From Candidatus Zhuqueibacterota bacterium (GTDB lineage: Bacteria > BS750m-G25): a stretch of DNA of 64,000 nucleotides. Positions 154 through 46,141 of this stretch are shown piece by piece. Position 1 is the first letter of the stretch. Every line of letters begins with the position of its first letter. The notes beneath the pieces were generated by a model. That model did not search any database. It saw only the letters and a program-made list of their open reading frames with translations, and was not told the DNA's origin. Made by a program: the position numbers and the translations under genes. The stretch lies in NCBI GenBank assembly GCA_016783505.1, contig JADHWK010000001.1, positions 1-64,000 on the forward strand, written 5' to 3'.

Positions 154-567
154 ATCAGTCGGGCGCCTGACCGAGCCCGGTTTAGCCGAATACCGAAGGC
201 CGTCATCCCAAGATGCGTCCGCACCGAAAACCGATACGGGCCCCGTGGAGTAAGTTTTACTACTCAACGGGGCGGGCAGCGTTACCGATAACCCAGCTAC
301 ATGACCGTATAAAGAAATAGATCCAAAAAGAAGAACAAAAAAATCATCCTACTTCTTAGTTGCCTTTTCTTGTTAATTTTCAATTCCCAATTTCATCCCG
401 GATCCCGGTTCACGAATCACGGATCACGCATACAACAATCAGCAATCCGGGCAGACGCCCGCCCGTCTGGGCGCAATCGTTTCCCCGGGCGACTGGAATA
501 GAATCGAGTTCTCCCCCTCCAGCACCAACTCCCGCATGTCCTGGTGCAAAATAGAATACGCTAATTT
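154..567 (+). pseudogene. Repeat unit 1: upstream region and 5' fragments of the 3653-4525 gene, start codon lost
   Basis: 154-327 aligns with 3533-3652; AAG at 328 replaces ATG; the KNKKIILLLSCLFLLIFNSQFHPGS and PGDWNRIEFSPSSTNSRMSWCKIEYAN blocks are present but out of frame. Confidence 0.85.
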
Positions 568-658
568 AAAGGGTGTCATTTCCCAGCGCACAGAATTCGA
601 CCACCGATCATATTATCCAAAATATGAGACCATCACCAATCAAAACGGAGTCTTTTAA

Positions 659-700
659 CTTGAAAATATTCCCTATAATGATTATATTGTTATTTTCAAG
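659..700 (+). promoter_or_regulatory. Sigma70-like promoter bracketed by a 10-bp inverted repeat (possible HicB operator)
   Basis: TTGAAA (660-665), 17 bp, TATATT (683-688); cttgaaaata (659-668) and tattttcaag (691-700) are a perfect inverted pair. Confidence 0.55.
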
Positions 701-745
701 AAGGGCATAAAAATGATAAAAGCAATTTTTTGATAAGGAGCAAAT

Positions 746-1036
746 ATGATTAAAAACATTATCTTTAGGGTGGAAATATTTAAGGAAGATGACCAGTACG
801 TTGCGATCTGTCCCGAATTGAACGTATCAAGTTATGGTGATTCAATCGAAGAGGCGAGAAAGGCAATTTCCGAAGCCATTAATCTCTTTTTAGAGGAATG
901 CGAAGAGATGGGAACTTTGAAAGAAGTATTAGAAGAAGCAGGATTTACCCATCTTTTGGTACCTGAAGAAAAATGGATAACTAACGAGCCTGTCTCATTT
1001 GAGAAAATTAATCTTCTCGAGGCCCTCAGTGTCTGA
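746..1036 (+). CDS. hicB: HicB-family antitoxin
   Basis: IFKEDDQYVAICPELNVSSYGDSIEEARKAISEAI is the HicB N-domain motif; AAGGAG RBS. Confidence 0.85.
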   Translation: MIKNIIFRVEIFKEDDQYVAICPELNVSSYGDSIEEARKAISEAINLFLEECEEMGTLKEVLEEAGFTHLLVPEEKWITNEPVSFEKINLLEALSV

Positions 1037-1271
1037 AGGTAAGTTAGTCCCTATACATTATAAAAAACTGACAAAAATATTTGAAAAGGATGGCTTTGTG
1101 GTAAGACGTCGCAAAGGCGATCATATAAGCATGGTGAAACCAGGTATTAAAAGACCTTTGGTCATAAAAACGAGTCCCAAAAAAGTGCCAGTTACTCACA
1201 TCAGAACTAATATGACTACGGCAGGCATGAGTAGGGAACGATTTCTTAAATTGCTTGATGAAGTAAAATAA
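1029..1271 (+). CDS. hicA: HicA-family toxin
   Basis: IFEKDGFVVRRRKGDH motif; basic, ~80 aa; GTG at 1029 overlaps the hicB end. Confidence 0.8.
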   Translation: MSEGKLVPIHYKKLTKIFEKDGFVVRRRKGDHISMVKPGIKRPLVIKTSPKKVPVTHIRTNMTTAGMSRERFLKLLDEVK

Positions 1272-1305
1272 AAATCCCGATAAAATCTAATTAAACAGCC
1301 CCAAA

Positions 1306-1677
1306 ATGAAAAACACAAAAATCATCCTACTTTTTAGTTGCCTTTTCTTATTAATTTTCAATTCCCAATTTCACCCCGGATCACGGATCCAGCATCCAAC
1401 TATCAGCTATCATTCCCAAGCATTCGGGACAATCAACAATCCGGGCAGACGCCCGCCCGTCTGGGCGCAATCAGCAATCGGCAATCAGCAATCCGCATTC
1501 TGCATTCCGAAATCCGGGCAGACGCCCGCCCGTCTGGGCGCAATCGTTACCCCCGGCGATTGGAATAGAATCGAGTTCTCCCCCACCAGCACCAACTCTC
1601 GCATGTCCTGGTGCAAAATAGAATACGCTAACTTTGGGGTAAATATAAATGTCTCAATTTCTTCATTTAACATATAA
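1306..1677 (+). pseudogene. Repeat unit 2: truncated copy of the 3653 gene 5' region
   Basis: Same N-terminal block and PGDWNRIEF...IEYANFGV block, separated by a 7-mer repeat tract; homology stops after FGV. Confidence 0.85.
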
Positions 1678-1711
1678 GAGCAATTGAAAGGAAATTTCTG
1701 AGGGCATTTAG

Positions 1712-1969
1712 ATGGAACAGACAAAATACATTGACAAAGATGAATTCGTAGAGAGGGGGAAAAGAATATATAAAAGGTTAAAACCAAAGTTAGAAAGGGA
1801 TTTTAAAGGGAAAGTAATTGCTATTGAAATTGAGTCTGGTGATTATGTTGTTGGAGAAGACGAACTGGATGCGGCGATAAAGGCGAAAAAGAAATTCCCT
1901 GGGAAGATATTTGATTTCATACGGATTGGATATGAGGTAGTTCATAAACTTCGAAAGGGTAAAGAGTGA
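1712..1969 (+). CDS. Small protein, DUF5678-like partner of a clan AA aspartic protease
   Basis: KGKVIAIEIESGDY...AKKKFPGK...RIG pattern; coupled (GTGA overlap) to the protease gene. Confidence 0.6.
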   Translation: MEQTKYIDKDEFVERGKRIYKRLKPKLERDFKGKVIAIEIESGDYVVGEDELDAAIKAKKKFPGKIFDFIRIGYEVVHKLRKGKE

Positions 1970-2331
1970 TCAAAGGCTTCGTCAATGAGCATGAAGAACC
2001 TATTATTGAATTAACCTTGATTTTAAGAAACGAACCTAGGAATTTCCCCGCGGTTATTGATACCGGATTTAATGGGTATATTAGTGTGCCCGAAAAACAC
2101 GTAAAAAGTTCAGATTGGCTCTTTATGGGTTATGAAGAATATGAGCTGGCTTCAGGAGAGATAGTGAAGGCAAAAACTTATTTAGGAAACATTGTATTTG
2201 ATGAAAAACAAATGCCAACCTTCATTTTATCCTCAACATCCAAGGATATTTTAATTGGCACCCGATTATTGGGGACTAAAACGTTGTTCATAAATTTTAT
2301 TGATAAGAAAGTTGTTATTAATGATAAATAA
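1966..2331 (+). CDS. Clan AA (retropepsin-like) aspartic protease
   Basis: AVIDTGFNG catalytic motif, ELASG flap, ILIGTRLL C-terminal motif. Confidence 0.85.
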   Translation: MIKGFVNEHEEPIIELTLILRNEPRNFPAVIDTGFNGYISVPEKHVKSSDWLFMGYEEYELASGEIVKAKTYLGNIVFDEKQMPTFILSSTSKDILIGTRLLGTKTLFINFIDKKVVINDK

Positions 2332-2397: not shown

Positions 2398-2897
2398 GTC
2401 ACCGATAACCTAGTTCCGATTAACGTATAAATAAACCAAAAATGAAGAACAAAAAAATCATCTTACTTCTTAGTTGCCTTTTCTTATTAATTTTCAATTC
2501 CCAATTTCATCCCGGATCACGGATCATGGATTCAGCTGTCAGCAATCAGTCCCGAGCATTCGGGACTATCAGCCGTCAGCCGTCAGCTTTCAGCCATCTT
2601 TCAAACTTACCACTTAGCAATCAACAATTAACAATCAACAATCAGCAATCAACAATCAGCAATTCATCTCTAACCCCTCCACACTCCGATGCGGCTAACT
2701 CCCCTTCACCTGGTGATTGGAATAAAATTGAGTTCTCCCCCTCCAGCACCAACTCCCGCATGTCCTGGTGCAAAATAGAATACGCTAACTTCGGGGTTTA
2801 CCCTGTTAAATATAAATATTTCAATTTCTTCAATGTTCTATTTGTCAGTTTAAAGGGGTCCCCAATTTTAATATGGGGTTCGGAAATGATTATTTAA
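2398..2897 (+). pseudogene. Repeat unit 3: truncated copy of the 3653 gene 5' region (ORF 2442-2897)
   Basis: Upstream gtcaccgataacc resembles 3606-3640; both conserved blocks present with the longest 7-mer tract; ends in a MITE-like element. Confidence 0.85.
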
Positions 2898-2953: not shown

Positions 2954-3301
2954 ATGAAACCTATTAAATCAATGAAATGTTATGTTTTTAAAGATGTATC
3001 ACCTTTACACATTCTCTTTACTGAAGAGGATGGTGTAATTGTCGTGAGATGTTTAGACTTCAGCATTTCCAGCCACGGTAACACTATCCAAGAAGCCATA
3101 GAATCTATGAATATTGCTTTGATAGATTATATCAGGCATGGTATAGAAAATGGCGATATTGACGCTCTTTTTGACCCTGACCTGAAGGAATATTGGGATT
3201 TATATATGGAGTTAGAGATCGAAGAGGAAAGGAAAAGTTTTAGGGAGCACCTCAAGGAGGTTGAGAAGAATGTTCAGAGTGAAGGATTAATCTATGCTTA
3301 A
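2954..3301 (+). CDS. HicB-like antitoxin
   Basis: EEDGVIVVRCLDFSISSHGNTIQEAIESM resembles the HicB N-domain; AGGAGG RBS. Confidence 0.65.
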   Translation: MKPIKSMKCYVFKDVSPLHILFTEEDGVIVVRCLDFSISSHGNTIQEAIESMNIALIDYIRHGIENGDIDALFDPDLKEYWDLYMELEIEEERKSFREHLKEVEKNVQSEGLIYA

Positions 3302-3509
3302 GCCCAAGGAATTGCGGAAGGTCATCAAAATTCTATCAAACTATGGAATTAAATTCAAATATTCCAAGAGGGGAAAGCATTCGGGTAAGTTTTATAAAGG
3401 GGCGAAATCCTTTCCTGTGAAAGCACATGGTAAAAAGACCGAAATTCTCCCCTATGCGTTAAAGGGATTAATCAAGAAATACGGCTTACCAGAGGATGTT
3501 TTTTATTAA
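3294..3509 (+). CDS. HicA-like toxin
   Basis: 71 aa, basic, K-LRKVIKIL..YG....RGKH....FPVKAHG pattern; overlaps the antitoxin. Confidence 0.6.
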   Translation: MLKPKELRKVIKILSNYGIKFKYSKRGKHSGKFYKGAKSFPVKAHGKKTEILPYALKGLIKKYGLPEDVFY

Positions 3510-3652
3510 CTTTTATAAGGAACAAAGGAAATATCAGTCGGGCGCCTGACCGAGCCAGGTTTAGCCGAATACCGAAGGCCGTCAACGAAAACCGATACGG
3601 GCTGCGTTACCGATAACCCAGCTACATGACCGTATAAAGAAATAGCCCCAAA

Positions 3653-4525
3653 ATGAAAAACAAAAAAATCCTATTACTTTTTAGTTGCTTTTTCCTATTA
3701 TTTCTCAATTCCCAATTTCATCCCGGATCACGGATCATGGATTCAGCTATCAGCAATCAGCAATTAACAATCCTCTCCCCGGGTATCTGGAATAGAATCG
3801 AGTTCTCCCCCACCAGCACCAACTCCCGCATGTCCTGGTGCAAAATAGAATACGCCAACTTTGGTGTCTATTCTGATGGGGCTTCGCCGGAACTTAACCA
3901 CCTTATCGTTAGAAATTGTTCCGACACCGGCATTTGCTTTTCCTCTGTCCCCTCAATCCTTGATCCTTTATCTTTTATTATTGCCGAAGGCAACAGAGTG
4001 GGGTTTCAGTTTGAAGGAGTGGACTCCGGATTAGTGGGAAGGAATGTGGTGGTTGGTAATGATGAAGTGGGGATTGGGTGTAAGACGAATCCGCTGAGAA
4101 TTTCAAATAACCTGCTTAATCGTAATAATACAGGCGTTTTGTGTGAATACGGTTCGCATTCCACTATTGAGCACAATGGAATTCTAAATAATAGCTATGA
4201 AATAATAACACGATGTAGTTCTAATGCGATGGTTAACTTGAACAATTTAGCTAGTAATTTAATTAGGCAGATTCGTATTGAACATAACTCTTTTCCTACG
4301 ATAAATTCTAATAACTTTAGTAATAACCCAGATATTTGTATAAGCTTACTTTGGACCTGGAATGTTAACGCAAAAAACAATTGGTGGGAAACTACAGTTG
4401 AAAATGAAATAGATGAAATGATCTGGGATGGAAATGATGTGAATGATCCGGAACATCCTTTGGGATTTGTGGAATATATTCCTTTTGAGATTTCTATAAT
4501 TGATAGCTCAGGCATTCAGAATTAA
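3653..4525 (+). CDS. Right-handed parallel beta-helix (NosD/PbH1-like) exported protein
   Basis: Signal-like N-terminus; repeated I.NN.I..N..GI units; C-terminal NAKNNWW...IWDGND motif. Confidence 0.75.
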   Translation: MKNKKILLLFSCFFLLFLNSQFHPGSRIMDSAISNQQLTILSPGIWNRIEFSPTSTNSRMSWCKIEYANFGVYSDGASPELNHLIVRNCSDTGICFSSVPSILDPLSFIIAEGNRVGFQFEGVDSGLVGRNVVVGNDEVGIGCKTNPLRISNNLLNRNNTGVLCEYGSHSTIEHNGILNNSYEIITRCSSNAMVNLNNLASNLIRQIRIEHNSFPTINSNNFSNNPDICISLLWTWNVNAKNNWWETTVENEIDEMIWDGNDVNDPEHPLGFVEYIPFEISIIDSSGIQN

Positions 4526-4535: not shown

Positions 4536-5495
4536 ATGGCAAAATTTCTTGTAACCGGCGGCGCTGGCTTCATCGGTTCCAACATTTTTGAAGAGCTTTT
4601 GAAAAGAGGAGAAAAGGTAAGAGTTCTTGATAACTTCTCCACAGGCAAACGAGAAAACATCAGCGATATCTTAAGGGTTTTGTCTAATGACTCAATAACT
4701 CAATTACCTAATAATTTAGAAATAATTGAAGGAGATATAAGAAGTTATCATATTGTCAGAGAAGCAGTTGAAGGGGTGGATTTTATTTTACACCAAGCGG
4801 CTTTGCCTTCTGTGCCTCGTTCTATAAAGGATCCAATAACGACTAATGAGGTTAATGTAAAAGGAACTTTAAATATTTTGTATGCGGCTAAGGATGCTGG
4901 TGTTAAAAGAGTAATTTATGCTTCTTCATCTTCTATTTATGGAGACAGCGAAGTTTTACCAAAGAAAGAAGATATGACACCAAATCCGCTTTCGCCTTAT
5001 GCGGTCTCTAAATTGGCAGGTGAGAAATATTGTCAGGTGTTTTATCAGATTTATGGATTGGAAACGATTTGTTTGAGATATTTCAATGTTTTCGGACCAA
5101 GACAAGACCCGACTTCGCAATATTCAGCAGTGATTCCGAAGTTCATTACAATGATGAAAAAGGGTGAAAGACCCATAATTTATGGGGATGGAAAGCAGAG
5201 CAGGGATTTTACCTATGTGGCGAACGTGGTGGAGGCGAATATTTTAGCTTGCACCGGAAATAATATGACTGGAGAGGTTCTTAATATCGCTTGCAGTGAA
5301 CGATTCACGCTTTTGGATCTGGTTAGGCAATTGAATCACATACTTGGCAAAAATTTTGAGCCTGTGTTTGAACCACCTCGCCCAGGGGATGTGAAGCACT
5401 CAATGGCTGATATTTCGAAAGCTATAAAGGGAATAAACTATTTTGTTAAAACTGATTTTGCTACTGGGATAAAAATTACTACTGAATTTTTGTAA
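4536..5495 (+). CDS. NAD-dependent epimerase (WbpP/WbgU-like extended SDR)
   Basis: TGGAGFIG, HQAALPSVPRS, YAVSK, RYFNVFGPRQDP. Confidence 0.9.
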   Translation: MAKFLVTGGAGFIGSNIFEELLKRGEKVRVLDNFSTGKRENISDILRVLSNDSITQLPNNLEIIEGDIRSYHIVREAVEGVDFILHQAALPSVPRSIKDPITTNEVNVKGTLNILYAAKDAGVKRVIYASSSSIYGDSEVLPKKEDMTPNPLSPYAVSKLAGEKYCQVFYQIYGLETICLRYFNVFGPRQDPTSQYSAVIPKFITMMKKGERPIIYGDGKQSRDFTYVANVVEANILACTGNNMTGEVLNIACSERFTLLDLVRQLNHILGKNFEPVFEPPRPGDVKHSMADISKAIKGINYFVKTDFATGIKITTEFL

Positions 5496-5496
5496 G

Positions 5497-6516
5497 ATGA
5501 ATGAAGATATGGTCAGTGTAGGATTAATCGGTTGTGGATACTGGGGACCCAACTTACTAAGGAATCTTGTTGCCAATCCTAAATGTGAGGTTAAGTGGGT
5601 AGTTGATATTTCAAATAATAGGCAAGAGTATGTTCGCGGCATCTATCCTGCATTAAAGATTACAGATGACTTAGGAGATGTACTTTACGATAATGATGTT
5701 AAAGCAATAATTATAGCCACACCTGCGAAATCACATTACAGTTTAACAATTAGTGCTCTCAAAGCTGGAAAACATGTGCTTGTAGAAAAACCAATGGCAA
5801 TGAAAGTTGAGGAAGTTGACAAAATTGGTACGATAGCTAAAGAAAATAACTTGGTTGCAATGGCAGGGCATACGTTTCTCTACAATGCAGCAGTGCGTTT
5901 AGTTAAACAGTTGATCAATTCTGGTGAACTTGGGGCAATTCGTTACATTTACAGCCAGCGATTGAACCTTGGGCGAATACGTTCAGATGTGGATGCCCTC
6001 TGGAATCTTGCGCCACACGATGTTAGTATCATCCAGTACTGGCTGGGGAATCCTAAACCTGTAAGGGTGACACGAAATGGTATGGCCTATGTGCAAAACG
6101 GCGTGGATGATGTAGTATTCATGAATATTATTTATCCCGGAAATATAATGGCAAATATACATGTGAGTTGGCTTGATCCGCATAAGGTAAGAAGGATGAT
6201 TGTGGTTAGCTCCAAGAAAATGGTGTTGTATGATGATATAGCAGAAAATAAAATAGCAATCTATGATAAAGGAATTGATAGAATGGCGGTATTAGGTGAA
6301 CATATGGATTTTGACGATCCCAGCACATTTACGTTTAACCATCGTTCCGGTGATATTATCTTGCCAAAAATAAATTGGCAGGAGCCATTGAAGGTTGAGA
6401 TCGAACATTTTGTGGATTGTATACTGAATGGGACAGAATGCTTAACTGGTGTAGACCATACAAGAAAGGTCGTAAATATTCTTTCTTTAGGTAAAAGGCC
6501 AACCAATGATCAGTAA
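5497..6516 (+). CDS. Gfo/Idh/MocA oxidoreductase (WlbA/WbpB-like sugar 3-dehydrogenase)
   Basis: GCGYWGPN, HVLVEKP, LAPHD motifs. Confidence 0.85.
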   Translation: MNEDMVSVGLIGCGYWGPNLLRNLVANPKCEVKWVVDISNNRQEYVRGIYPALKITDDLGDVLYDNDVKAIIIATPAKSHYSLTISALKAGKHVLVEKPMAMKVEEVDKIGTIAKENNLVAMAGHTFLYNAAVRLVKQLINSGELGAIRYIYSQRLNLGRIRSDVDALWNLAPHDVSIIQYWLGNPKPVRVTRNGMAYVQNGVDDVVFMNIIYPGNIMANIHVSWLDPHKVRRMIVVSSKKMVLYDDIAENKIAIYDKGIDRMAVLGEHMDFDDPSTFTFNHRSGDIILPKINWQEPLKVEIEHFVDCILNGTECLTGVDHTRKVVNILSLGKRPTNDQ

Positions 6517-6967
6517 GACAGCGGTCGTAAAAGATGCCAAGATTGGTGAAAACACTTATATAGGGGAATTTGCTAATGTTTATGGATGCGAGATTGGCGA
6601 CAACTGTAAAATTGGATCTTATGTAGAAATCCAGAATAATGTTAAAATAGGGAATAATGTTACGATTTCCACGCATTCTTTTATTTGTTCGTTGGTTACG
6701 ATAGAAGACGATGTGTTTATTTCTCATGGGGTTATGACCATTAATGACATTTATCCTCCATCTTTCCGCAAAACCAGTTCAAAAAAACACTGGAAAAAAA
6801 CATTGATAAAAAAGGGGGCTGTGATAGGTAGTAATGCCACCTTGCTACCAGTGACTATCGGGGAAAACGCGTTAGTGGGCGCCGGTGCAGTTGTGACAGA
6901 AGATGTGCCTGATAATTGTGTGGTTGCTGGTAATCCTGCCCAAGTAATTAGAATAAAGGATAAGTAA
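6506..6967 (+). CDS. Hexapeptide-repeat N-acetyltransferase (WbpD/WlbB-like)
   Basis: IGxN hexapeptide repeats, GAGAVVT, VAGNPA. Confidence 0.88.
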   Translation: MISKTAVVKDAKIGENTYIGEFANVYGCEIGDNCKIGSYVEIQNNVKIGNNVTISTHSFICSLVTIEDDVFISHGVMTINDIYPPSFRKTSSKKHWKKTLIKKGAVIGSNATLLPVTIGENALVGAGAVVTEDVPDNCVVAGNPAQVIRIKDK

Positions 6968-6971
6968 ATAT

Positions 6972-8078
6972 ATGGACATACCCTTTGTAGACCTAAAAGT
7001 CCAGTATCAATCCTTAAAGAATGAGATTGATTCAGCTATTCAAAATGTAATCAATGAAACAGGTTTTATTAAAGGGAAGTATGTACAAAATTTTGAAGAA
7101 GAGTATGCTAGAGCTTATGGTGTAAAACACTGTATCAGCTGCGCCAACGGCACTGATGCAATTTACATCAGTTTGAAAGCTCTGGGCATTGGTACCGGTG
7201 ATGAAGTGATCACTGTAGCAAATACTTGGATATCTACTTCCGAGGCAATCACTCAAGCAAGTGCCAGACCCGTATTTGTCGATATTCATCCCGATTATTA
7301 CACTATTAATGTTTCAAAAATAAAAACAAAGATCACTGCTAAGACAAAAGCGATTATTCCCGTCCATTTATTTGGTCAACCAGCGGAAATTGATAAAATA
7401 AATAAAATTTGCGGGGAGTATAATCTCTATTTGATTGAAGATTGCGCTCAGGCTCATTTTGCTGAGTACAAGGGCAAAAAGGTGGGCACATTCGGCATCG
7501 CTGGGACGTTCAGCTTTTATCCGGGCAAGAACCTGGGGGCTTACGGAGACGCGGGGGCCATCATTCCCAATGACGATGATTTTGGGGTTAAGGCGAGAAT
7601 GTTTGCCAATCACGGTTCATTAAAAAAACATCATCATGAATTCGAAGGTATCAACAGCCGTTTGGACGGCCTGCAGGCGGCGATCCTCTCAGTGAAACTA
7701 AAGTACATCAGCGAATGGAATGAAAAGCGCCGTCAGCACGCGCTGAATTATAATGAGTTGCTCTCGAATATTGATGGTATCACAACGCCGAAGATCCACC
7801 CCGATGTGAAGCATGTTTTCCACCTTTACGTAATAAGGATAAATAAAAGGAATGAATTGCAAAAATATCTAAAAGATAGCGGCATAGCAACAGGAATACA
7901 TTATCCAACTCCGCTGCCTTTTTTAAAAGCCTACGAATATCTTAAACATACAAATGAAGATTTTCCCGTTGCATATAAATACAAAGATGAGATTTTATCG
8001 TTACCTATTTTTCCTGAACTAAGTAAAGGTCAAATTCAATATGTTGTAGATTGTATAAAGAGGTTTAATAATGTATAG
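6972..8078 (+). CDS. DegT/DnrJ/EryC1/StrS aminotransferase (WbpE/WlbC-like)
   Basis: IPFVDL, IEDCAQAH, SFYPGKNLGAYGDAG, GIHYP. Confidence 0.92.
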   Translation: MDIPFVDLKVQYQSLKNEIDSAIQNVINETGFIKGKYVQNFEEEYARAYGVKHCISCANGTDAIYISLKALGIGTGDEVITVANTWISTSEAITQASARPVFVDIHPDYYTINVSKIKTKITAKTKAIIPVHLFGQPAEIDKINKICGEYNLYLIEDCAQAHFAEYKGKKVGTFGIAGTFSFYPGKNLGAYGDAGAIIPNDDDFGVKARMFANHGSLKKHHHEFEGINSRLDGLQAAILSVKLKYISEWNEKRRQHALNYNELLSNIDGITTPKIHPDVKHVFHLYVIRINKRNELQKYLKDSGIATGIHYPTPLPFLKAYEYLKHTNEDFPVAYKYKDEILSLPIFPELSKGQIQYVVDCIKRFNNV

Positions 8079-37332: not shown

Positions 37333-37602
37333 ATGGCAATCAAAGTGGATTTATCGGAATTTAAGGTGTTAGATTCACCGAACGATATTGAAGTTCCTGA
37401 TTGGATGAGCAGGATAAGAAGCGAAGATATGCCAGAGTTTATTGCGGATATTGTGAAGGCTTATTTATATGGATTGAGAACCGGGGATTTTTCAAAGGCT
37501 AAAGAAGAACTGGAAACCTGGCGAGAGACCGTTGAGCTATGTTATGATCTTCCTGAAAAGGAGGAGGTGTCGGTTCGGTGGAGGGACCTTAAGGATGTAT
37601 GA
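37333..37602 (+). CDS. Putative antitoxin
   Basis: 89 aa, acidic, ending VRWRDLKDV; overlaps a RelE-like remnant. Confidence 0.5.
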   Translation: MAIKVDLSEFKVLDSPNDIEVPDWMSRIRSEDMPEFIADIVKAYLYGLRTGDFSKAKEELETWRETVELCYDLPEKEEVSVRWRDLKDV

Positions 37603-37720
37603 GAAGGGCAAGTACAGGATAAAAACCCCTTTCGGTTATCGCATTGTCTACGAAATAGCCGAGAAGGAATCATTGGTTAGGATTTATAAGATTGATACAC
37701 GGGTAAGTATTGGTTATTAA
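37595..37720 (+). pseudogene. RelE/ParE-like toxin, internally deleted
   Basis: MYE joined to KYRIK..GYRIVYEI.....V.IYKI (RelE C-terminal half); only 41 codons. Confidence 0.6.
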
Positions 37721-37971
37721 AATGGTCCGGTTTACTTTAAGCAGGAGCGCAACGGAAACCCGTAAGGGAAATCAGAAATCTGAAACTAGAAGTGTGAAAT
37801 CAGAAATATTAAACTAGAAAGCAGAAGTTAGTGAAGATGAGCTATGCCGGTTTTTTACTAATCCTAACTTGGATCTGTATGGACCGGCTTTCATTTTTTT
37901 CTTGTGAAAGGGGATTTTTTGTTGTATATTTTAAAAAATCACTAACCACTTTGTAATCCAGAAGCATTATT

Positions 37972-38289
37972 GTGAAAAAAGAGATAGATTTTATATACTA
38001 CTTCGATTTAGACAATCGACTTAGAGTAAGTGCATTGAAGGAAAAGAAGGAAATACAGGAATTTATTGTTCAATATGAAGCCTTTATTCAAAAGAAATGG
38101 CGGTCCATTGTTCGATACGACACAAGTCACGGTTTTATTCATAAGGACACTATGCATCCAGATCAAAAACAGGACAAATTCCCTATATTTTTTATGACCT
38201 ATGAAGTGGCATTTACCTATGCCATAGCCGATATCAAGAGGTTTTGGCAAATATATCGGGATAATTATGAAAAGGAGATAAGGAAATGA
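37972..38289 (+). CDS. Small TA-like toxin candidate (RYD..HG..H motif)
   Basis: IVRYDTSHGFIHKD; ATGA overlap with the next gene; TTGTGA-17-TATATT promoter at 37902-37930. Confidence 0.55.
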   Translation: MKKEIDFIYYFDLDNRLRVSALKEKKEIQEFIVQYEAFIQKKWRSIVRYDTSHGFIHKDTMHPDQKQDKFPIFFMTYEVAFTYAIADIKRFWQIYRDNYEKEIRK

Positions 38290-38537
38290 AGCAAGAAGAA
38301 TTAGCGGAAAAGAACTTGGATCTCTTCCATGAATTCATGATGTATGTCTTAGAGAAGCCCGATATCCTTGACCGAATACCCAAGGGTGCTCAGCTTGTTA
38401 TTCTTCCTGAGGATGATCCGGAACTTTGTCAGAAAAATCTGGAAATTGTACGTAAGAGAAAGGAAGAAGGTCAAACGGTGGTAACCGTGAAGATGCTCAC
38501 CCCTAAACGAGTAGTGCCCAAAATAGCAGTGTCTTAG
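38286..38537 (+). CDS. DUF5647-like small protein, putative antitoxin
   Basis: KNLDLFHEF..YVLE.PDIL..IPKGAQLVILPEDDPELC pattern (family recalled, not searched). Confidence 0.55.
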   Translation: MKQEELAEKNLDLFHEFMMYVLEKPDILDRIPKGAQLVILPEDDPELCQKNLEIVRKRKEEGQTVVTVKMLTPKRVVPKIAVS

Positions 38538-38579
38538 TTTGAACTAATTTGTATAAATGACTACTGTCCTGATAATTCC

Positions 38580-38918
38580 AATGATCCCCGAATAACAAAA
38601 TTTGGAAAATTTATCCGTAAATATAGTCTCGATGAATTGCCGCAATTATTCAATGTTCTAAAGGGTAATATGAGTCTTGTGGGCCCAAGGCCATGCTTGC
38701 CTTATGAATGGGATGCTTATGACAGATGGCATAAAAGGAGGCTTGATGTGAGACCTGGATGTACGGGGCTCTGGCAGGTAAGCAGCAGAAGCGAAGTTGG
38801 ATTTGATGATTCTGTCATTCTCGATTTATACTATATTCAAAACATGTCACCCTGGTTTGATCTTCAATTAATTCTAAAAACCATACCAACGATGATTACC
38901 GGATATGGTGGAAAATGA
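38580..38918 (+). pseudogene. 3' fragment of a second, paralogous sugar transferase
   Basis: [38 protein letters not shown] through to a stop; no N-terminus. Confidence 0.85.
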
Positions 38919-39480
38919 GCAACGAACAAGACGAACTGAACTAACATTTTTACTAAAAGCTGAGTAAAGCACATTGTTTTACAAGCAAAGTATGTGTGGA
39001 GCAAACAGCAATCAATTAGGTTCCCTCCCCCTTGCCCCCCACCTATCCTCCCCCCATAATGGTGGGAGAACAAAGAAGGGGGGATTAATATGGGGGAGGG
39101 TTTCGGTCAGGTCAGTCAGGCGGGTATTTTGCAGAACTATCGCAATTGATAATTTAGGGGTTTTATGTTTGGAACCGCTCTAAAGAGCGATTCTGGTTAA
39201 CTAATTGCTAAACAAAATATTAACTAGAACCTTATCCCGATGCTTCGGGATAGGTTCTGGACATTAGCAACGTTTACTAGTTGTGCCACAGACCCAGGCG
39301 CATGACTGATCGGTCAGGCGCCCGACTGAAGGGAGGGGAATGGAAAGGATAGATACTAATGACATTCCGCCGTTGCCAACGAATGGCGATATCCGCTCAT
39401 ATTTTTTATGAAGTTGACCAAAAGGCAACCGTAGCGGTGAATGAAATATAGGTATTTATTAAGATAAGGAAGGGTTTGAG

Positions 39481-39723
39481 ATGGCATGCCGTAAAAAAGT
39501 GTTGAGCGTTCCCCCCTCTTTTTTGGAGATAGAACAATTAGCCAGATACTACGCAAAAGGGAAAGGGATTTCATTTTCAGCCTTTGTCTGGCAAGCAGTT
39601 GAGCATTATATACGGGAACAATTAGGTGAAGAAGAACTTCCTGCTGATGTTATCTGTGAACTTGATATTATGGAAAAAGAAATGGATCAGGGTGGGTATC
39701 TTCTGCTTCAGAACTTAAAATGA
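39481..39723 (+). CDS. RHH-like antitoxin
   Basis: LSVPPSFL....YAKGKGISFSAFVWQAVEHY; ATGA overlap with RelE. Confidence 0.65.
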   Translation: MACRKKVLSVPPSFLEIEQLARYYAKGKGISFSAFVWQAVEHYIREQLGEEELPADVICELDIMEKEMDQGGYLLLQNLK

Positions 39724-39977
39724 CCTGGGAGGTCAGGATATCCCGAGAAGTTGTTCGATACCTTTCCCGCATGGAAGAGAAGCGGAGCCAGATACTCCGA
39801 GAAATATTAAAAGGCTTTCGTGAAAATCCCTTTGTGGGAGATGTAAAACCGATAAAAGTACGTCCCAGCATGTATCGCAGGCGAGTGGGTGCATGTAGAA
39901 TCATCTAATCGATTGACTATGAAGCTCATATTGTTAAAGTACTGAGGATAGGAACAAGAGGGGATATCTACAAGTAG
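39720..39977 (+). pseudogene. relE: RelE-family toxin with nonsense mutation
   Basis: MTWEVRIS...YRRRVGACRII*SID...VKVLRIGTRGDIYK*; in-frame TAA at 39906-39908. Confidence 0.85.
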
Positions 39978-40088: not shown

Positions 40089-40182
40089 AGGGTTTGTTCG
40101 TTCAGCGGTCAAATAGAAGATTTTGTAAAAAGAGTGACAGCAGTTCTGAAGAGTGAATCTCAAAATTGAAGTCAAAATCGAT
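40089..40182 (+). pseudogene. 3'-end fragment of the 45048-45494 toxin-like gene
   Basis: Aligns with 45414-45507 (FSGQIEDFVKRV.AVL.SESQN* and downstream bases). Confidence 0.85.
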
Positions 40183-40214: not shown

Positions 40215-40530
40215 CAGGCCACTAAAGATGATCCCCGCATTACGGCGGTGGGCCGCTTCTTAAGGAAAACCAACTTGCCCCGATAATTCACAACCTAATA
40301 ATCACAGTTACCAATCATTTACATTAACTATGACATAGCTACCAAAATATTACCAATTAACGCATTAATTATCGGGGTTGGACGAGATTCCTCAGATCAT
40401 CAATGTATTCAAAGGAAACATGAGTTTAGTCGGTCCCCGTCCCCATATGCTGAAGCATACCGATCAATATCAGAAGCTAGTGCCCAAATACATGGTCCGC
40501 CATTTAGTAAAACCCGGCATGACCGGGTGA
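40215..40530 (+). pseudogene. wcaJ fragment A (QATKDDPR...PGMTG), interrupted by a MITE
   Basis: Aligns with 35295-35504 over 70 codons. Confidence 0.92.
40278..40377. mobile_element. 100-bp MITE, copy A
   Basis: Perfect 11-bp TIR ccccgataatt/aattatcgggg; ttg duplicated on both sides; intact wcaJ shows the empty site. Confidence 0.9.
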
Positions 40531-40590: not shown

Positions 40591-40848
40591 GTGAAAAGTA
40601 TTGACTATACACGCCATGCCAGAAATAAGTTTGATATCCTGAAACGGCATGGCTTTGAGGTGACTCCAGATCAGGTTGAGGAAACTGTATTGAACCCTGA
40701 AAAGGTGATCCCACAGCCAGGCGGCAGATTCATCGCCCAGAAAGGGATCACCGAGCGGCACGTGCTACGGGCTGTGTACCGGGAGGAAGAAGAGACACGT
40801 AAGGTGATCACTTTTTACCCAGGAAGGAGAGAGCGTTATGAAACTTAA
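40591..40848 (+). CDS. DUF4258-like toxin candidate
   Basis: YTRHARNK, VLNPE, HVLRAVY, VITFYP. Confidence 0.75.
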   Translation: MKSIDYTRHARNKFDILKRHGFEVTPDQVEETVLNPEKVIPQPGGRFIAQKGITERHVLRAVYREEEETRKVITFYPGRRERYET

Positions 40849-41059
40849 CTATGATCGAGAAGAAGACATCTTGATGATTGAAACAACCCCTGAAGGCACC
40901 ATTGATCACGCTGAGCACACGGGGCCGTTCATAGCGCATTTCAGTCGGGATGGGCAACTCTTGTTATTGGAAATTCTCGATGCCAGTGAATTTCTGTCCT
41001 CGCTGATTAAGGCCACCCTTCGCGGGCAGGAACAAGAACTACCATTTACTGTTGGATAG
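40838..41059 (+). CDS. DUF2283-like antitoxin candidate
   Basis: MKLNYDREEDILMI...DGQLLLLEILDAS. Confidence 0.8.
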   Translation: MKLNYDREEDILMIETTPEGTIDHAEHTGPFIAHFSRDGQLLLLEILDASEFLSSLIKATLRGQEQELPFTVG

Positions 41060-41064
41060 AAAAC

Positions 41065-41430
41065 GCAGACTGAAGCAGCAACGGCTGGACCAAAACGAGG
41101 CCATTGGGGCCAGTCTTCAAAATAAAGGACGATCCACGAGTTACGCAGGTAGGCTATTTTTTAAGGAAAACCAACTTGCCCCGATAATTCACAACCTAAT
41201 AATCACAGTTACCAATCATTTACATTAACTATGACATAGCTACCAAAATATTACCAATTAACGCATTAATTATCGGGGTTGGATGAGATTCCCCAGATCA
41301 TCAATGTATTCAAAGGAAACATGAGCTTAGTCGGTCCCCGGCCCCATATGCTTATGCATACCGATCAATATCAGAAGCTGGTGCCCAAATACATGGTACG
41401 TCATTTGGTAAAACCCGGCATGACAGGCTG
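41065..41430 (+). pseudogene. Chimeric sugar-transferase fragment B, interrupted by a MITE
   Basis: Left part GPVFKIKDDPRVTQVG (non-wcaJ paralog type); right part wcaJ-like through PGMTGW. Confidence 0.85.
41179..41278. mobile_element. 100-bp MITE, copy B (identical to copy A, same site)
   Basis: Base-by-base identical to 40278-40377; ttg duplicated on both sides. Confidence 0.9.
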
Positions 41431-41620
41431 GAAGGTAGAAATTAAAAACTTGAAATCAGAAACTGGAAGTATGAAAAGAATTCGAAAGGAAAATCACTGT
41501 TATCTTAGATTTTCTCCCGAGACTTCGGGACAAGTTTCAAGTTTCTAATTTTAAAGTGGGTGGTGGTCAAGGGGCAGGCCTGCTCGCCCCTTTTCAAAAA
41601 GGTAATGTCTTTGCACAATT

Positions 41621-41802: not shown

Positions 41803-41975
41803 TTGCAAAAGAAAGGAGTCAAAACGAACATTGCTGTTGTTGGAATTGGATATTGGGGACCAAATTTGGTTAGAAATTGTGTGGAGAATCTTGACATCAA
41901 GGATGTTTATGCCGTAGATATTGATCCATCCCGGTTAGAATTTATCAAGTCAAAGTATAATTCCGTTATTATCGT
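41803..41975 (+). pseudogene. N-terminal fragment of a Gfo/Idh/MocA oxidoreductase
   Basis: IAVVGIGYWGPNLVRN...VDID; truncated at a palindromic element near 41995. Confidence 0.8.
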
Positions 41976-42097
41976 TGAGCCCGGTAATATTGAGATTAAC
42001 CCACAGTTTTAACGGTGGGATTAAGCTGTAAGAAATCAATTTTCAACCCCTTTAGGGGTTTTTAAAGAAGGTTCAGCGTTATAATGCGGAGATATTT

Positions 42098-42232
42098 ATG
42101 AATGTTCCATTTCTTGATTTAAAAGCCCAGTTACTAAAGATCAGATCAGAAATACAAAAACGATTTTCAGAAATCATAGATAATACATCCTTTGTCTGTG
42201 GAAAAGGAGTGGCAGAGTTTGAAGATAATTTT
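42098..42232 (+). pseudogene. 135-bp duplicate of the 5' end of the degT-like gene at 43222
   Basis: Near-identical to 43222-43356. Confidence 0.92.
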
Positions 42233-42331: not shown

Positions 42332-42634
42332 ATGAAACATCTTCCTATTTTCTTAAGTAAGTATTTCTGGGAGGTAGATTTTGCATCCCTTGATGCAGAA
42401 AAATACCCTAAATATGTCATCGAAAGGATATTAGAGTATGGGGATATTAAGGCAATTCGGTGGATGAAGAAAAATTTCAGTCTTGATGAGATTAAAAATG
42501 TCCTGTATAACACAAGGGGACTGACTTTAAGAAGTGCCACCTTTTGGGCAATAGTTTTGGGAATACCAAAAAAGAGTATCAAATGTTTGAGCAAGCCCTA
42601 TCTGGAAATACGAAAACTGTTCTGGCCTTATTAG
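42332..42634 (+). CDS. DUF6922-like antitoxin partner
   Basis: YFWEVD...LD......YVIERILEYGD motif. Confidence 0.75.
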   Translation: MKHLPIFLSKYFWEVDFASLDAEKYPKYVIERILEYGDIKAIRWMKKNFSLDEIKNVLYNTRGLTLRSATFWAIVLGIPKKSIKCLSKPYLEIRKLFWPY

Positions 42635-43221
42635 GAGACTCAGATGTTTTAGCTTATTCCTATCTTGCCGGTGGAACAGGAATAGCTCTTCAACTTGGTC
42701 ATAGAATATCAATAGACCTTGACTTCTTCACTCCTGAGGAGTTTGATATTGATGCTCTTGTTAAAAGACTTAATGAAATAAACCAGTTTACACTTGAGGA
42801 AAAAAAATGGGGAACCGTAACGGGTGAGTTTGGCGAAGTGAAGTTTAGCATTTTTGTCTACCAGTATCCAGTAATTTTGCCCTTCAAATCATTTCTCAAA
42901 GTAAATATTATGGATGTTCGTGAAATTGCGGCGATGAAACTAGAAGCAATTGCAACGAGGGGAAAGAAGCGGGATTTCATTGACCTTTATTTTGTCGTGC
43001 AGGGAATTGAAGGACTTAAAGGCATTCTTTCGCTGTATAATAAGAAATACGGAAAATTTGGGAACAAAATGGTTCATATTATGAAAGGCCTTACCTATTT
43101 TGAAGATGCCGAGGCGGAGGAGTTACCAAGAATGTTAGTCCCGGTGGATTGGAAAGAGGTAAAGAGATTCTTTGAAGAAGAGGTCAGAAAAATAGGAAGG
43201 GAGTTCTTGGAAGGAGGTTAA
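42583..43221 (+). CDS. AbiEii/AbiGii-like nucleotidyltransferase toxin
   Basis: YLAGGTGIALQLGHRISIDLDFF, AAMKL.AI..RG.KRDFIDLY. Confidence 0.88.
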   Translation: MFEQALSGNTKTVLALLGDSDVLAYSYLAGGTGIALQLGHRISIDLDFFTPEEFDIDALVKRLNEINQFTLEEKKWGTVTGEFGEVKFSIFVYQYPVILPFKSFLKVNIMDVREIAAMKLEAIATRGKKRDFIDLYFVVQGIEGLKGILSLYNKKYGKFGNKMVHIMKGLTYFEDAEAEELPRMLVPVDWKEVKRFFEEEVRKIGREFLEGG

Positions 43222-44313
43222 ATGCAAGTTCCATTTCTTGATTTAAAAAGCCAGTTACCAAAAATCAGATCAGAAATACAAAATCGGTTTTCAGAAATCA
43301 TAGATAATACATCCTTTGTCTGTGGAAAAGGAGTGGCAGAGTTTGAAGATAATTTTTCTAAACTTCACGGAGTGAAGTATACAGTCGGTATAAGTTCAGG
43401 CACAGACGGCAATCATTTAGCCATGTTATGTTTAGGAATTGGAGCCAATGACGAAGTCGTTGTTCCTGTCAATACATTTATTGCCACAGCAGAGGGTATA
43501 TCGCATGCAGGGGCCACACCGATTTTTTTAGATGTAAATGAGAAATCATTTAACATAGATGTAAACAAAATTGAACAGTCAATTACCCCAAAAACTAAAG
43601 CCATTAATCCGGTTCATCTATTTGGTAAACCGGCTGAAATGCAAACAATTCTTTAAATTGCAGAGAAATATAACCTTAAGGTAATTGAGGACGCTGCCCA
43701 GGCCCATACGGCTTCTTATAATAATAAAAAAGTAGAAAATTTAGGGGATGTGGCCTCATGGCCTTTTTATTCCGGGAAAAATCTCGGTGCCTGGGGTGAA
43801 GCCGGAGCTATTACTACAAATAGCGAAGAGATTAATAAAAAAGCAAAAGATTTACGCGATCATGGCTCTGATAAAAAATATTACCATGATTTAATAGGTC
43901 ATAACTATCGTATGTCTGAATTTCAAGCCGCTGTCCTCAATGTAAAAATGAAATACATTGAAGAATGGACAGAAATGCGAAGATCGAATGCCAAAAAATA
44001 TTATGAGCATTTAAAGGATATAGGACAAGTAATAACCCCAGTTGAAATGGACGGCGTCCGACATATATACCATTTATATGTAATCAGAGCACCAAATCGT
44101 GATAAGCTTCAGGATTTTTTAAAGGAAAATGGAATCGCTACAGGTTTACATTATCCTATACATTTGCACCTTACAGGGGCTTATTCGCGTCTTGGCTACA
44201 AAAAAGGCGACTTCCCTGTTGCAGAAAAGTTAGCAGATGAAATTCTTTCACTCCAAATGTATCCAGAATTGTCCGAAGAACAGACAGATTATGTATGTGA
44301 AAAAATAAAATAA
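43222..44313 (+). pseudogene. DegT-family aminotransferase with internal stop
   Basis: In-frame TAA at 43654-43656; the frame continues IAEKYNLKVIEDAAQAH...GKNLGAWGEAG. Confidence 0.88.
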
Positions 44314-44519
44314 TTTTATTGTAACCTATAATTGCATAGTATTCTAAGAACCATAACTTTTGCCATAAGGGGGATTGGAACGTTTTAATCAGAAACTAGA
44401 AACTTGTCCCGAAGTCTCGGGATGAAATCTGAAACTAGAAAAAAGAAACTAGAGGCGTATTGAAATTCAGGGAGAATAGGAAGAAATAGATCGATGGATA
44501 AGAAAAGAAATGGGTAAAT

Positions 44520-44670
44520 GCCCCCCTGGGAGCGTAGCCTCCTACCCTAGTCGCAAAGCGATCTTGCCTGCCCGTGGCCGGGCTACGGCCAGGGGGACCG
44601 GGCACGGCGGACCGGTCGGCCTGCCCGGCCAGGGAGACCCGCCTAGGGGCAGGTAAGGCCCGTCTGGGGA
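44520..44670. repeat. GC-rich nested palindromic insertion in an 8-mer tract
   Basis: Abrupt GC-rich block with tggcc/ggcca, cctgccc/gggcagg and gcccgtctggg motifs, between ATGGATAA-type repeats. Confidence 0.55.
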
Positions 44671-44773
44671 TAAGTGGATAGATGGACAAGTGGATTTTTT
44701 GTTGTAAATTAACAATAAGAAAATTAAAAGAGGGAACCGAAGGGGGCTTTTTTACCAATAGGAGGATACAATT

Positions 44774-45058
44774 ATGAGTACAGAAAGCAAATCAAGGAAA
44801 ATGTCCAAAGAGGAGTTTACCCAGAAAGTAAACAGCCTTGAGCTGTCGCCCGATAAGGCTATCGCAAAGCTAGCCGAACAGCTTTATAAGTATGAGAAGA
44901 AATATAATCTACGTTCGGAGATATTCTACAAGCTAATCGTAGGTACGCCTGCCGAGGACACCCCGGATTTCATTGCATGGGCTATATGTTATAGAACTTA
45001 CTTCCGCACGCTTCAATCAAAGTTGTCCATTGAGGAGGTCGGTACTGGTGTTGTATGA
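44774..45058 (+). CDS. Antitoxin candidate (TumA-like)
   Basis: L..YEKKYNL.SE.FY.........DF..W pattern; AGGAGG RBS. Confidence 0.6.
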   Translation: MSTESKSRKMSKEEFTQKVNSLELSPDKAIAKLAEQLYKYEKKYNLRSEIFYKLIVGTPAEDTPDFIAWAICYRTYFRTLQSKLSIEEVGTGVV

Positions 45059-45494
45059 TTCCTACCAGCGGAGGCTGATTATTGATCGCTGTTGGCTGAT
45101 TTATGATCTTATTACGGAGACATTCGCTGTTCCACACCAGTTTCACATCGATTTTCCTTTAATGGTGGAGGTTGCTTTGATCTCCGGCTATCTTCAGGTT
45201 CTTGTGGAGATTAGTCGAAAAGGTCATTTGTTACATATCCACGAGGAATACGATTTTAGAAACCACGAGCTTGTAATCAGGGTCTACAGCTATAACCTTT
45301 TGCATAAAAGCAAACACAATATCATCCGGGCTGACCCCCTTCCCCACTATCGAGTTGATTATAGACGTCGCAAGCTGGCGCATTTTCCTCATCATCTGCA
45401 CGAGGAAAAAGGAAGGATTTGTTCATTCAGCGGTCAAATAGAAGATTTTGTGAAACGAGTGGCAGCAGTTCTGGAGAGTGAATCTCAGAATTGA
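45048..45494 (+). CDS. DUF6516/TumE-like toxin candidate
   Basis: YSYN......IIRADPLPHY......FPHHLH motif; GTG start overlapping the antitoxin. Confidence 0.65.
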   Translation: MLYDSYQRRLIIDRCWLIYDLITETFAVPHQFHIDFPLMVEVALISGYLQVLVEISRKGHLLHIHEEYDFRNHELVIRVYSYNLLHKSKHNIIRADPLPHYRVDYRRRKLAHFPHHLHEEKGRICSFSGQIEDFVKRVAAVLESESQN

Positions 45495-45505
45495 AGTCAA
45501 AACCG

Positions 45506-45718
45506 ATGGATCTTGTAAAGACGCCTGAAAAGCATATTGATATCGAGAATTTTATAGAGCCTGAAGATCCTAAACAATCTAAAGACCCAAAGGTATATGT
45601 CCAATCAACCTTTTTCGAAAAGATAAATTCTTTACCATTGTTTGGAATGATGAACTTAAGATGCAAGAGTGAAAAAGTACGTAAAAAGTACCATAAGCTA
45701 TTAATACAAGAAGATTAA
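45506..45718 (+). CDS. Small hypothetical protein
   Basis: Open frame only; no recognised motif. Confidence 0.3.
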   Translation: MDLVKTPEKHIDIENFIEPEDPKQSKDPKVYVQSTFFEKINSLPLFGMMNLRCKSEKVRKKYHKLLIQED

Positions 45719-46141
45719 GTTGTTTTGAAATCAGAAACCTGAAAATAAAAGTATGAAAAAAATATAATGACAATTTTCTATCCAACTTCGACCTTTCCCA
45801 AAGGAATCCCGAGACTTCGGGACAAATTTCTAGTTTCCAGTTTCGATGTTTCTAGTCTCAAAATAATGGAGCTGAAATAGAAATGGAAGGAAAAGAAAAA
45901 ATTTTAAATTTTCCAGCTCTGTGGAAATATCTTGCTGACCCCATATTATTGAAAAATAGGTTCCAATGCATTAAAAATAAAGGAATTAAATCGATCCTTG
46001 TTTGAAACAAGTGGATGTCTTTATTATTCAGAACCTTAACGTTGGCTTATTAGTAACTTTTTCAATAAAATAGGGACATTAGGTTAAATTCCAGGAGAAC
46101 CATAATATTAATGTTTCAAATCTTGCCATGATAACCTCAAT

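Follow-up and report, generated by a model that had tools for sequence, protein, structure and literature searches.

Toxin-antitoxin cassettes between pieces of neighbouring genes in a Candidatus Zhuqueibacterota genome: possible scars of one-ended homology capture

How chromosomal toxin-antitoxin (TA) systems move without transposases or integrases has so far been poorly explained. Here, we analyzed the first 64 kb (hereafter, the window) of a 197-kb contig (JADHWK010000001.1) from a metagenome-assembled genome (MAG) of Candidatus Zhuqueibacterota (GCA_016783505.1), in which two arrays of TA-like cassettes, separated by pieces of the adjacent genes, lie on either side of a polysaccharide locus. 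We propose, with moderate confidence, that these arrays are the scars of repeated capture of foreign DNA by one-ended homology at borders between conserved genes and hypervariable regions, the addiction modules being retained afterwards. Two described processes resemble this: homology-facilitated illegitimate recombination was reportedly described by de Vries and Wackernagel in 2002 and by Prudhomme et al. in 2002, and insertion of restriction-modification (RM) systems accompanied by a long duplication of the target is said to have been described by Nobusato et al. in 2000.

When homology was available at only one end of the incoming DNA in E. coli, 56 of the 60 recombinants were trimmed and recircularised fragments integrated by a single crossover, which duplicated 109-950 bp of the lacZ end, and four of the 60 were true homology-facilitated illegitimate recombination events (Amarir-Bouhram, Goin and Petit 2011, PMC3240628). 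RM systems have been described as inserting with a long target duplication, between repeats of 45-423 bp and without mobility genes, and a life cycle of insertion, amplification via the repeats and release was proposed for them (Furuta, Abe and Kobayashi 2010, PMC2853133). In Rhs genes, the conserved core serves as the homology anchor and laterally acquired units displace the old gene end, which leaves tandem arrays of dissociated stubs carrying toxin and immunity genes; homologous recombination via circular intermediates was proposed as the route (Jackson et al. 2009, PMC2935791). In the literature consulted, including reviews such as PMC3874152, the long-repeat mode is stated for RM systems and not for TA pairs. 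The only TA pair found there between target or gene-end duplications was a ParE/ParD pair of Microcystis between identical 152-bp repeats (PMC7935541), to which the supplementary figures of PMC2853133 may add cases.

Cassettes between gene pieces at the glycan locus and elsewhere

The MAG was assembled from short reads into 89 contigs (2.51 Mb), is 59.9% complete and is the sole genome of its phylum within our comparison collection. It is called G000 below, and C1 (the window contig), C26, C32, C38, C43, C44, C80 and C89 are contigs belonging to it.

The left array (1-3650) and the right array (35673-46170) flank the polysaccharide locus, and their cassettes are co-oriented. We counted ten two-gene cassettes and a single-gene one, all 11 on the plus strand, which is the same number of TA-like pairs in two arrays as in an earlier reading of this DNA, made from the sequence only. 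A TA-family match was obtained for eight of the ten pairs (HicA, MazE, ParE, DUF4258/DUF2283, AbiEii, TumA/TumE), several of them under the curated cut-off, so that these are predicted modules; the two others are TA-like from their layout alone. At least three of the toxins are truncated or bear a stop. The left array begins at the contig end, which is a caveat on its completeness.

Self-comparison bore out the three extra 5' copies of the beta-helix lipoprotein gene reported ahead of the intact gene, with 79-94% identity to 3598-3870 (Table 1). The reported 5' copy of the DegT gene was also recovered. Five sugar-transferase (ST) 3' parts had been described as well, and five pieces are indeed present, but they are heterogeneous: two are internal bits of about 30 nt, two (fragments d and e, 89-97% identical to the resident gene) lack the final 165 nt, and one comes from a distant ST gene. 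The hairpin and 7-mer tail joined to both of the short bits also trails the intact ST gene. In addition, we found pieces that were absent from the first account, namely a TumE 3' copy, an oxidoreductase 5' fragment and a CarboxypepD_reg-like fragment.

Four more beta-helix stubs were located on C38 (over its whole 6.1 kb) and in the first 5 kb of C43, interleaved with PIN, MazF-like, MNT/HEPN, RelE and 23S-rRNA intervening-sequence (IVS) protein genes. A search for shorter homologues of the beta-helix protein gave six among 47 candidates, four of which are stubs of this organism itself and two of which are C-terminal pieces from ENA.

All the stubs are on one strand. Upstream of the intact beta-helix and DegT genes they are 5' pieces, and downstream of the intact ST gene they are 3'-side fragments. 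As judged from the sequence, this would fit a single crossover between the chromosome and a circle bearing a gene piece together with foreign DNA. The Campbell-type additive insertion suggested earlier is thus compatible with the positions of the stubs, with their co-orientation and with the laboratory precedent in E. coli, but a circle, an empty site or turnover was not demonstrated.

The same layout was found well away from the glycan locus. Genome-wide, we detected 53 clusters of local direct repeats that are 55-450 nt long, share 78% identity or more and are separated by 0.5-4 kb. From these, 17 were set aside: three correspond to the window arrays, and visual inspection assigned 14 to tandem-repeat genes, duplicated paralogues or complex multi-repeat regions. 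Of the remaining 36 intervals, about 12 carry TA or TA-like pairs, two carry GIY-YIG genes, one a RAYT-type Y1 transposase gene and two defence-like genes. An antitoxin-PIN pair lies between two copies of the final ~150 nt of ffh (116 nt, 98%), and MNT/HepT lies between copies of the lon end (57 nt). The etfB end occurs in three copies around ParE pairs, and the end of a TPR gene together with its terminator (188 nt) surrounds a PIN pair. Repeats of 57-420 nt flank inserts of 0.4-1.5 kb with TA pairs, and no mobility gene lies in or beside these inserts. The earlier suggestion of a system belonging to the glycan locus therefore did not hold, as the architecture recurs at ffh, lon, etfB, the TPR gene and other genes.

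Flanking direct repeats were observed at eight of the 20 TA toxin loci retrieved by family search (PIN 11, ParE 6, HicA 3) and at 24 of 400 random positions (p=3e-5). A screen of other genomes for stub-flanked TA pairs, as had been recommended, showed that the layout exists elsewhere and is enriched in this MAG: in 40 unrelated genomes, seven of 60 PIN loci were repeat-flanked, about three of them being tight cassettes. In an unrelated genome (locus L035, G031:C10:16079-21650), we also noted a VapB/VapC-like pair of about 680 nt, at 2480-3279, between two perfect 61-nt copies that resemble the 3' part of a tRNA gene, with no integrase within the 5.5 kb examined.

Origin of the stubs and proposed additive capture

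Differences between stubs and intact genes are distributed over codon positions 1, 2 and 3 as 106/63/178 when pooled over 28 pairs, a few of which are probably in the wrong frame. Three comparisons of ST stubs gave 4/1/28, with 28 synonymous and three non-synonymous codons, and 71 of the 121 differences in the housekeeping subset were at third positions. A copy decaying in place is expected, under neutrality, to show at most about 45% of third-position changes. The excess thus indicates that both copies evolved as working genes for most of their divergence, which suggests that the stubs may derive from diverged functional alleles imported with the cassette.

The seven beta-helix stubs have five end-points. 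Two of them share a junction and the next 35 nt, yet carry different signal-peptide alleles, which speaks for recombination between stubs and against the use of a fixed site. No DNA paralogue of the cassettes was found elsewhere in the genome, so that nothing suggests intragenomic transposition. Identity to the intact gene shows no ordering by nearness from which a chronology of the stack could be read.

These data also bear on a true long target duplication, in which, as has been suggested for RM systems, insertion at wide staggered breaks or at a replication fork would have copied recipient sequence on both sides, the copies diverging later. Repeats of 57-420 nt without mobility genes match the range given for the RM cases (45-423 bp; PMC2853133), and the youngest case, at ffh, is 98% identical. 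Nevertheless, the third-position bias (28 of 33 for ST and the housekeeping value above) exceeds what neutral decay would give, although a later allelic replacement would mimic it, and the signal-peptide allele differs between two beta-helix stubs; we thus regard such a duplication as improbable.

Under one-ended homology capture, another strain would hold a different small insert beside the same conserved gene, and a DNA fragment spanning that gene and running into the insert would enter the cell. With homology limited to the gene piece, the fragment would either recircularise and integrate by a single RecA-dependent (Campbell-type) crossover or be joined by homology-facilitated illegitimate recombination. 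Either route would add and never replace, with each event leaving a displaced stub and an intact, chimeric gene, so that cassettes would stack; because the conserved gene would be the only homology between the strains, capture would add DNA and the arrays would grow. Recombination between stubs and erosion by deletions would come later. The dominance of TA pairs may be accounted for by the direct repeats, which would favour loop-out, and by a working addiction module, which would kill the cells that lose the insert. The circular or one-ended intermediate, the order of the events and the retention by addiction are what we infer here. In a more active version, which we consider possible but rather unlikely, TA modules of this lineage would spread as recombinase-free units of stub and cassette: a looped-out circle would use its stub as a homology arm and be reinserted by RecA beside the same gene in other cells, giving integron-like growth without an integrase at any conserved gene that adjoins variable DNA, with the TA pair serving both as cargo and as a guard against collapse.

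Several observations weigh against one-ended capture. About 18 of the 36 other repeat-bounded intervals hold ordinary genes or reflect repetitive extragenic palindromic (REP)-type repeats or paralogy, and 12 of the 20 TA loci have no flanking repeat. With only 78-88% identity, many of the repeats have by now diverged too far to recombine efficiently by homology. Ordinary allelic replacement of the intact gene after an in-situ duplication would be another possible source of the synonymous bias. Since several toxins are broken, addiction cannot act on those now. No empty site, cassette-less haplotype or circle was seen in the sequencing runs, which are contig-level and break at repeats. Scanning metagenomes with the beta-helix protein reduced 585 pattern matches to a single confirmed locus, L027, which is 98.2% identical to C38 and colinear with it over 3.4 kb, with no turnover visible. 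Finally, unrelated glycan genes (37-43% amino-acid identity) left relics in the right array, namely the oxidoreductase fragment, the second DegT gene and ST fragment c, and these fit decay of the locus better than cassette-wise insertion.

Whole earlier glycan loci or islands could, in fact, have been laid down beside tRNA-Met and then have decayed by deletion, with the stubs as random relics of deletion, with the TA pairs as the last survivors and without any cassette-wise insertion. In line with this, the unrelated relics in the right array keep a plausible operon order (ST, oxidoreductase, DegT), stubs contain internal deletions at microhomologies as well as insertions resembling miniature inverted-repeat transposable elements (MITEs), DegT and toxin genes contain in-frame stops, a tRNA gene adjoins the array with its 3' end, and the glycan locus is foreign in GC and strain-variable. 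However, this history fails to explain why copies of 57-190 nt from the ends of ffh, lon, etfB or the TPR gene closely enclose single TA pairs elsewhere in the genome, or why four beta-helix stubs end within ~10 nt of each other, and neither an integrase remnant nor a repeated tRNA fragment was found in the window. Taken as the explanation of the arrays, it is unlikely. A component of decay is nonetheless also real, with unrelated glycan relics, deletions and broken toxins. It is correct that the cassettes are bounded by real gene pieces, as stated in the sequence-only reading, but not all of these belong to the anchor genes: some are unrelated glycan relics, many are eroded by deletions, and the arrays are partly a graveyard.

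Single in-frame TAA codons were noted in otherwise intact toxin, IVS and DegT frames (39906-39908, 43654-43656, C38:4578-5036, C38:3924-4220 and C26:2237-2473); these look like nonsense inactivation rather than a change of code. At the contig end of L027 (3400-3590), a CarboxypepD_reg/beta-helix-like open reading frame (ORF) runs into sequence with a metallo-beta-lactamase-type HxHxDH motif, which is either another junction or a chimeric contig end. On C43 (G000:C43:6219-8998), a 420-aa ORF adjoins a UDP-glucose dehydrogenase-like gene and, on visual inspection of the ORFs only, could represent an insertion of the homing-endonuclease or intein type.

Small repeats, mobility genes and assembly support

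Six-frame searches of the window gave no match to PF00589 (tyrosine recombinase), PF01797 (Y1 transposase), PF00665 (rve) or PF01609 (DDE_Tnp_1), and the eight matches to PF00589 in the genome include none in C1:1-64000. For attC-type sites, whose R''/R' motifs we take to be RYYYAAC...GTTRRRY, a crude, low-power test of both strands found no pair at a spacing of 50-160 nt, in the arrays or in the controls. The inverted-repeat search detected no insertion sequence (IS)-type terminal repeats around single cassettes and returned only palindromic units of hairpins and 7-mers. Six-frame, motif and inverted-repeat searches of the window, the second of them crude, are thus in agreement with the earlier statement that the arrays are without integrase, attC and IS ends. 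No tRNA-Met fragment of at least 25 nt occurs elsewhere in the window, but the far border may lie past the contig end.

The palindromic units raise the question of an unrecognised recombinase, encoded elsewhere or lost, that would use hairpin/7-mer palindromes as attC-like sites in a divergent integron-like array. Four such units, 120-150 nt long and folding at about -28 kcal/mol, were found at some cassette borders and in this window only; the cassettes are co-oriented and mostly without obvious promoters, an integron-integrase-like gene with an internal deletion is present on C44, and the genome is just 59.9% complete. Against this, there are four units for 11 cassettes, most borders are stubs set by the neighbouring gene and differ at every locus genome-wide, the crude test found no R''/R' pair, the 7-mers are generic and the window holds no recombinase gene, which makes site-specific recombination very improbable. 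The C44 gene (G000:C44:2866-5545) encodes a tyrosine recombinase with an integron-integrase-like N-terminus and has a frameshift besides the internal deletion; its last codons open a 127-nt direct repeat (89%) around a 506-aa deaminase-HATPase_c_4 gene.

The stub copies had also been described as joined to 7-mer repeat tracts. The tracts are present, but they are a generic intergenic feature: 109 tandem heptamer tracts occur genome-wide (common units AATCAGC, AACAATT and AAACTAG), and only 28 of them lie inside open frames of at least 120 aa (81 outside), though such frames cover 86% of the genome. Examples in the window are at 1467-1497, 2618-2663, 35675-35745 and 54872-54899. The 7-mers were therefore rejected as a cassette signal; their presence next to the stubs is explained by the anchor genes, whose native tails include them. 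In the beta-helix gene and its stubs, the heptamer tract follows the signal peptide and precedes the first conserved motif, and the frame is kept in two of the stub ORFs. Short tandem heptamer repeats of some cyanobacteria resemble the tracts of this MAG.

Other small repeats were observed in and around the arrays. A 105-nt insertion, identical at 40274-40378 and 41175-41279 within two ST fragments, has inverted-repeat ends CCCCGATAATT...AATTATCGGGG and a MITE-like look, with no further copy in the assembled genome. Besides the multicopy element listed in Table 1, a second REP/MITE-like element (44520-44615) has about ten genome loci, and the two elements lift the contig depth 8-fold. REP-like hairpins are common in the genome, which has a RAYT-like Y1 transposase gene at G000:C89:1060-1879 (PF01797, 1.7e-25), bracketed by 186-nt direct repeats (91%) of paired hairpins, and two further Y1 genes on C32 and C80.

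In parallel, sequencing runs were compared with the window. In four runs from two studies, all at contig level, 92% or more of the words sampled from the right array are present, and four runs from four studies were aligned to the window (X1, X2, X5 and X6). Across 37771-46206, error-free contigs of X1 and X2 span every junction between stub and cassette; one of these two runs may be the source sample. In X6, 42161-47982 is covered at ~97-98% and nothing is covered at 36006-42017, and X5 is patchy; lack of cover is not evidence here. The glycan and ST part has a lower depth than the array and the backbone (~20 versus ~50 in X1, 40 versus ~60 in X2), and a second haplotype with 14 differing sites in 36645-36746 joins the reference sequence near 36750, at the ST mini-fragment. 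We conclude that strains vary in the glycan locus and that a break-point falls at a stub. A minor X1 haplotype lacks 38982-39464 (joint 38981 to 39465, depth 8), which suggests presence or absence of the REP/MITE cluster only. Other candidate joints were rejected as rearrangements: most of them, such as 35768 to 39309 and 44547 to 44629, are explained by multicopy REP/MITE-like elements, and the one from 35506 to 41439 is supported by just 30 nt on one of its sides and connects ST copies that are 90% identical.

The bridged junctions also speak to an assembly artefact, by which alleles of co-occurring strains would have been joined into spurious tandem arrays. Compatible with it would be the short-read assembly in 89 contigs, the left array at a contig end, the alternative stub arrays on C38 and C43, the breaks of contigs within repeats and the 70-nt identical block in the DegT repeat, which allows another path. 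On the other hand, runs of two studies, one run maybe being the source sample, bridge 37771-46206, the repeats differ from one another (79-94% identity), 3.4 kb of the C38 array recur in a separate record, L027, and a recorded contig of 40,180 nt carries the stub 1 ORF. We consider an artefact the least probable of the explanations, and scarcely credible.

The glycan region at 4536-35672, including the initiating Bac_transf gene, has a GC content of 0.26-0.40 versus about 0.52 in the backbone. From 46.3 kb onwards, the minus strand carries fatty-acid synthesis and other housekeeping genes.

Table 1. Positions of the cassettes, gene pieces, anchor genes and repeat elements in the window.
Feature	Position	Strand	Remarks
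REP-like hairpin element (153-205) and beta-helix 5' stub 0 (273-567)	153..567	+	Stub out of frame, start codon gone
CarboxypepD_reg-like gene fragment	570..702	+	Fuller copies on C38 and C43; 82% to C38:318-442 and C43:2511-2628
HicB-like/HicA cassette	746..1271	+	HicA 5e-9
Beta-helix 5' stub 1	1292..1640	+	ORF 1306-1677 in frame; junction sequence common to a C38 stub
85-aa ORF overlapping retropepsin-like aspartic protease gene	1712..2331	+	TIGR03698, 55 bits, under cut-off; TA-like by layout only
Beta-helix 5' stub 2	2398..2800	+	ORF 2442-2897 in frame
115-aa ORF/HicA-like cassette	2954..3509	+	HicA 1.9e-4, under cut-off
Upstream element and intact beta-helix lipoprotein gene (3653-4525)	3532..4525	+	Left anchor
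Polysaccharide locus	4536..34227	+	Epimerases, GFO oxidoreductase, DegT, glycosyltransferases, Wzy, Wzx, radical SAM
Intact Bac_transf sugar-transferase gene (34242-35672)	34242..35900	+	Right anchor; native tail of 7-mers, GNRA-type hairpin and 8-mers
MazE/AbrB-like antitoxin and 167-aa partner	35979..36720	+	Partner without family match
ST internal fragment of ~30 nt (36743-36771), AGCGCA microhomology fusion to hairpin and 7-mers, copy a	36743..36833	+	
23S-rRNA-IVS four-helix-bundle protein gene	36821..37186	+	Single-gene cassette
Palindromic unit, 7-mer arms around hairpin TCCCGAGACTTCGGGA	37179..37317	.	More copies at 41437-41557, 44380-44453 (inverted) and 45719-45865
89-aa antitoxin-like ORF and 41-aa C-terminal remnant of ParE/RelE-like toxin	37333..37720	+	
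ST internal fragment (~30 nt, 37721-37750) with hairpin and 7-mers, copy b	37721..37820	+	92% to copy a
DUF7718/DUF5647 pair	37972..38537	+	
3' end of distant sugar-transferase gene (ST fragment c)	38560..38918	+	40% aa identity to resident ST
Multicopy REP/MITE-like element	39102..39340	.	At least 15 genome loci
Ribbon-helix-helix (RHH)-like antitoxin and RelE/ParE-like toxin	39481..39971	+	In-frame TAA at 39906-39908
TumE 3' end copy	40089..40182	+	91% to 45414-45507
ST fragment d (ST nt 35295-35507)	40215..40530	+	105-nt insertion bounded by terminal inverted repeats at 40274-40378
DUF4258/DUF2283 pair	40591..41059	+	
ST fragment e	41116..41431	+	90% to fragment d, same insertion
GFO/IDH/MocA-type oxidoreductase 5' fragment	41803..42012	+	37% aa identity to resident 5497-6516
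DegT 5' copy (135 nt)	42098..42232	+	94% to 43222-43356
DUF6922/AbiEii pair	42332..43221	+	Stop abuts DegT start
Second DegT gene	43222..44313	+	In-frame TAA 43654-43656; 43% aa identity to resident DegT 6972-8078
TumA-like/TumE-like pair (44774-45494) and 75-aa ORF	44774..45718	+	
tRNA-Met(CAT)	46176..46250	-	3' end faces the right array, which stops there

Comparison with known systems

If one-ended homology capture is correct, a known but under-studied route of gene gain would extend to TA systems, and it would become clear why defence and addiction genes accumulate where conserved genes border variable loci, surface-glycan clusters for example. Even so, the arrays would not represent a new class of mobile element.

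Integrons and clusters of attC sites lacking integron-integrases (CALIN) likewise hold small, co-oriented and often TA-type cassettes between repeated elements, but no IntI gene lies beside the array and no attC-type site was found here, and the separators are pieces of neighbouring genes that vary by locus. Unlike a tRNA-targeting island, the window yielded neither an integrase nor a repeated tRNA 3' part.

Orphan CdiA-CT/CdiI modules are analogous to the displacement arrays of Rhs genes. The likeness of the latter to the present arrays lies in tandem displaced gene ends, each with its own cargo, beside one intact gene. In Rhs, as laid out in PMC2935791, the anchor is the core of the toxin gene itself and the stub is a toxin tip, whereas here the anchor genes are unrelated, the TA pairs are self-contained and the stubs have no toxin domain.

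The E. coli recombinants share with these arrays foreign DNA flanked by a partial gene-end duplication, with one intact and one truncated copy. They were, however, obtained at low frequency in a laboratory plasmid system, and the account in PMC3240628, as far as it goes, shows neither natural arrays nor a preference for TA pairs.

The sequence-only reading knew of no named system with this structure, but long target duplication by RM systems, as set out in PMC2853133, already describes such an architecture: an addiction-type unit without transposase or integrase between long, variable direct repeats, often overlapping a gene end. In agreement with the definition of Furuta and colleagues, the repeats found here exceed 30 bp, and the inserts are below 20 kb, carry addiction genes and have no mobility gene. 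The RM cases presented there are single insertions identified by comparison with empty sites and their repeats are copies of the target, whereas several anchors here carry multi-cassette arrays and the codon evidence suggests that one of the repeats is an imported allele, a pattern that later allelic replacement would also give. A long-repeat signature so far described for RM systems was thus observed at eight of 20 toxin loci, together with multi-cassette arrays at several unrelated anchor genes.

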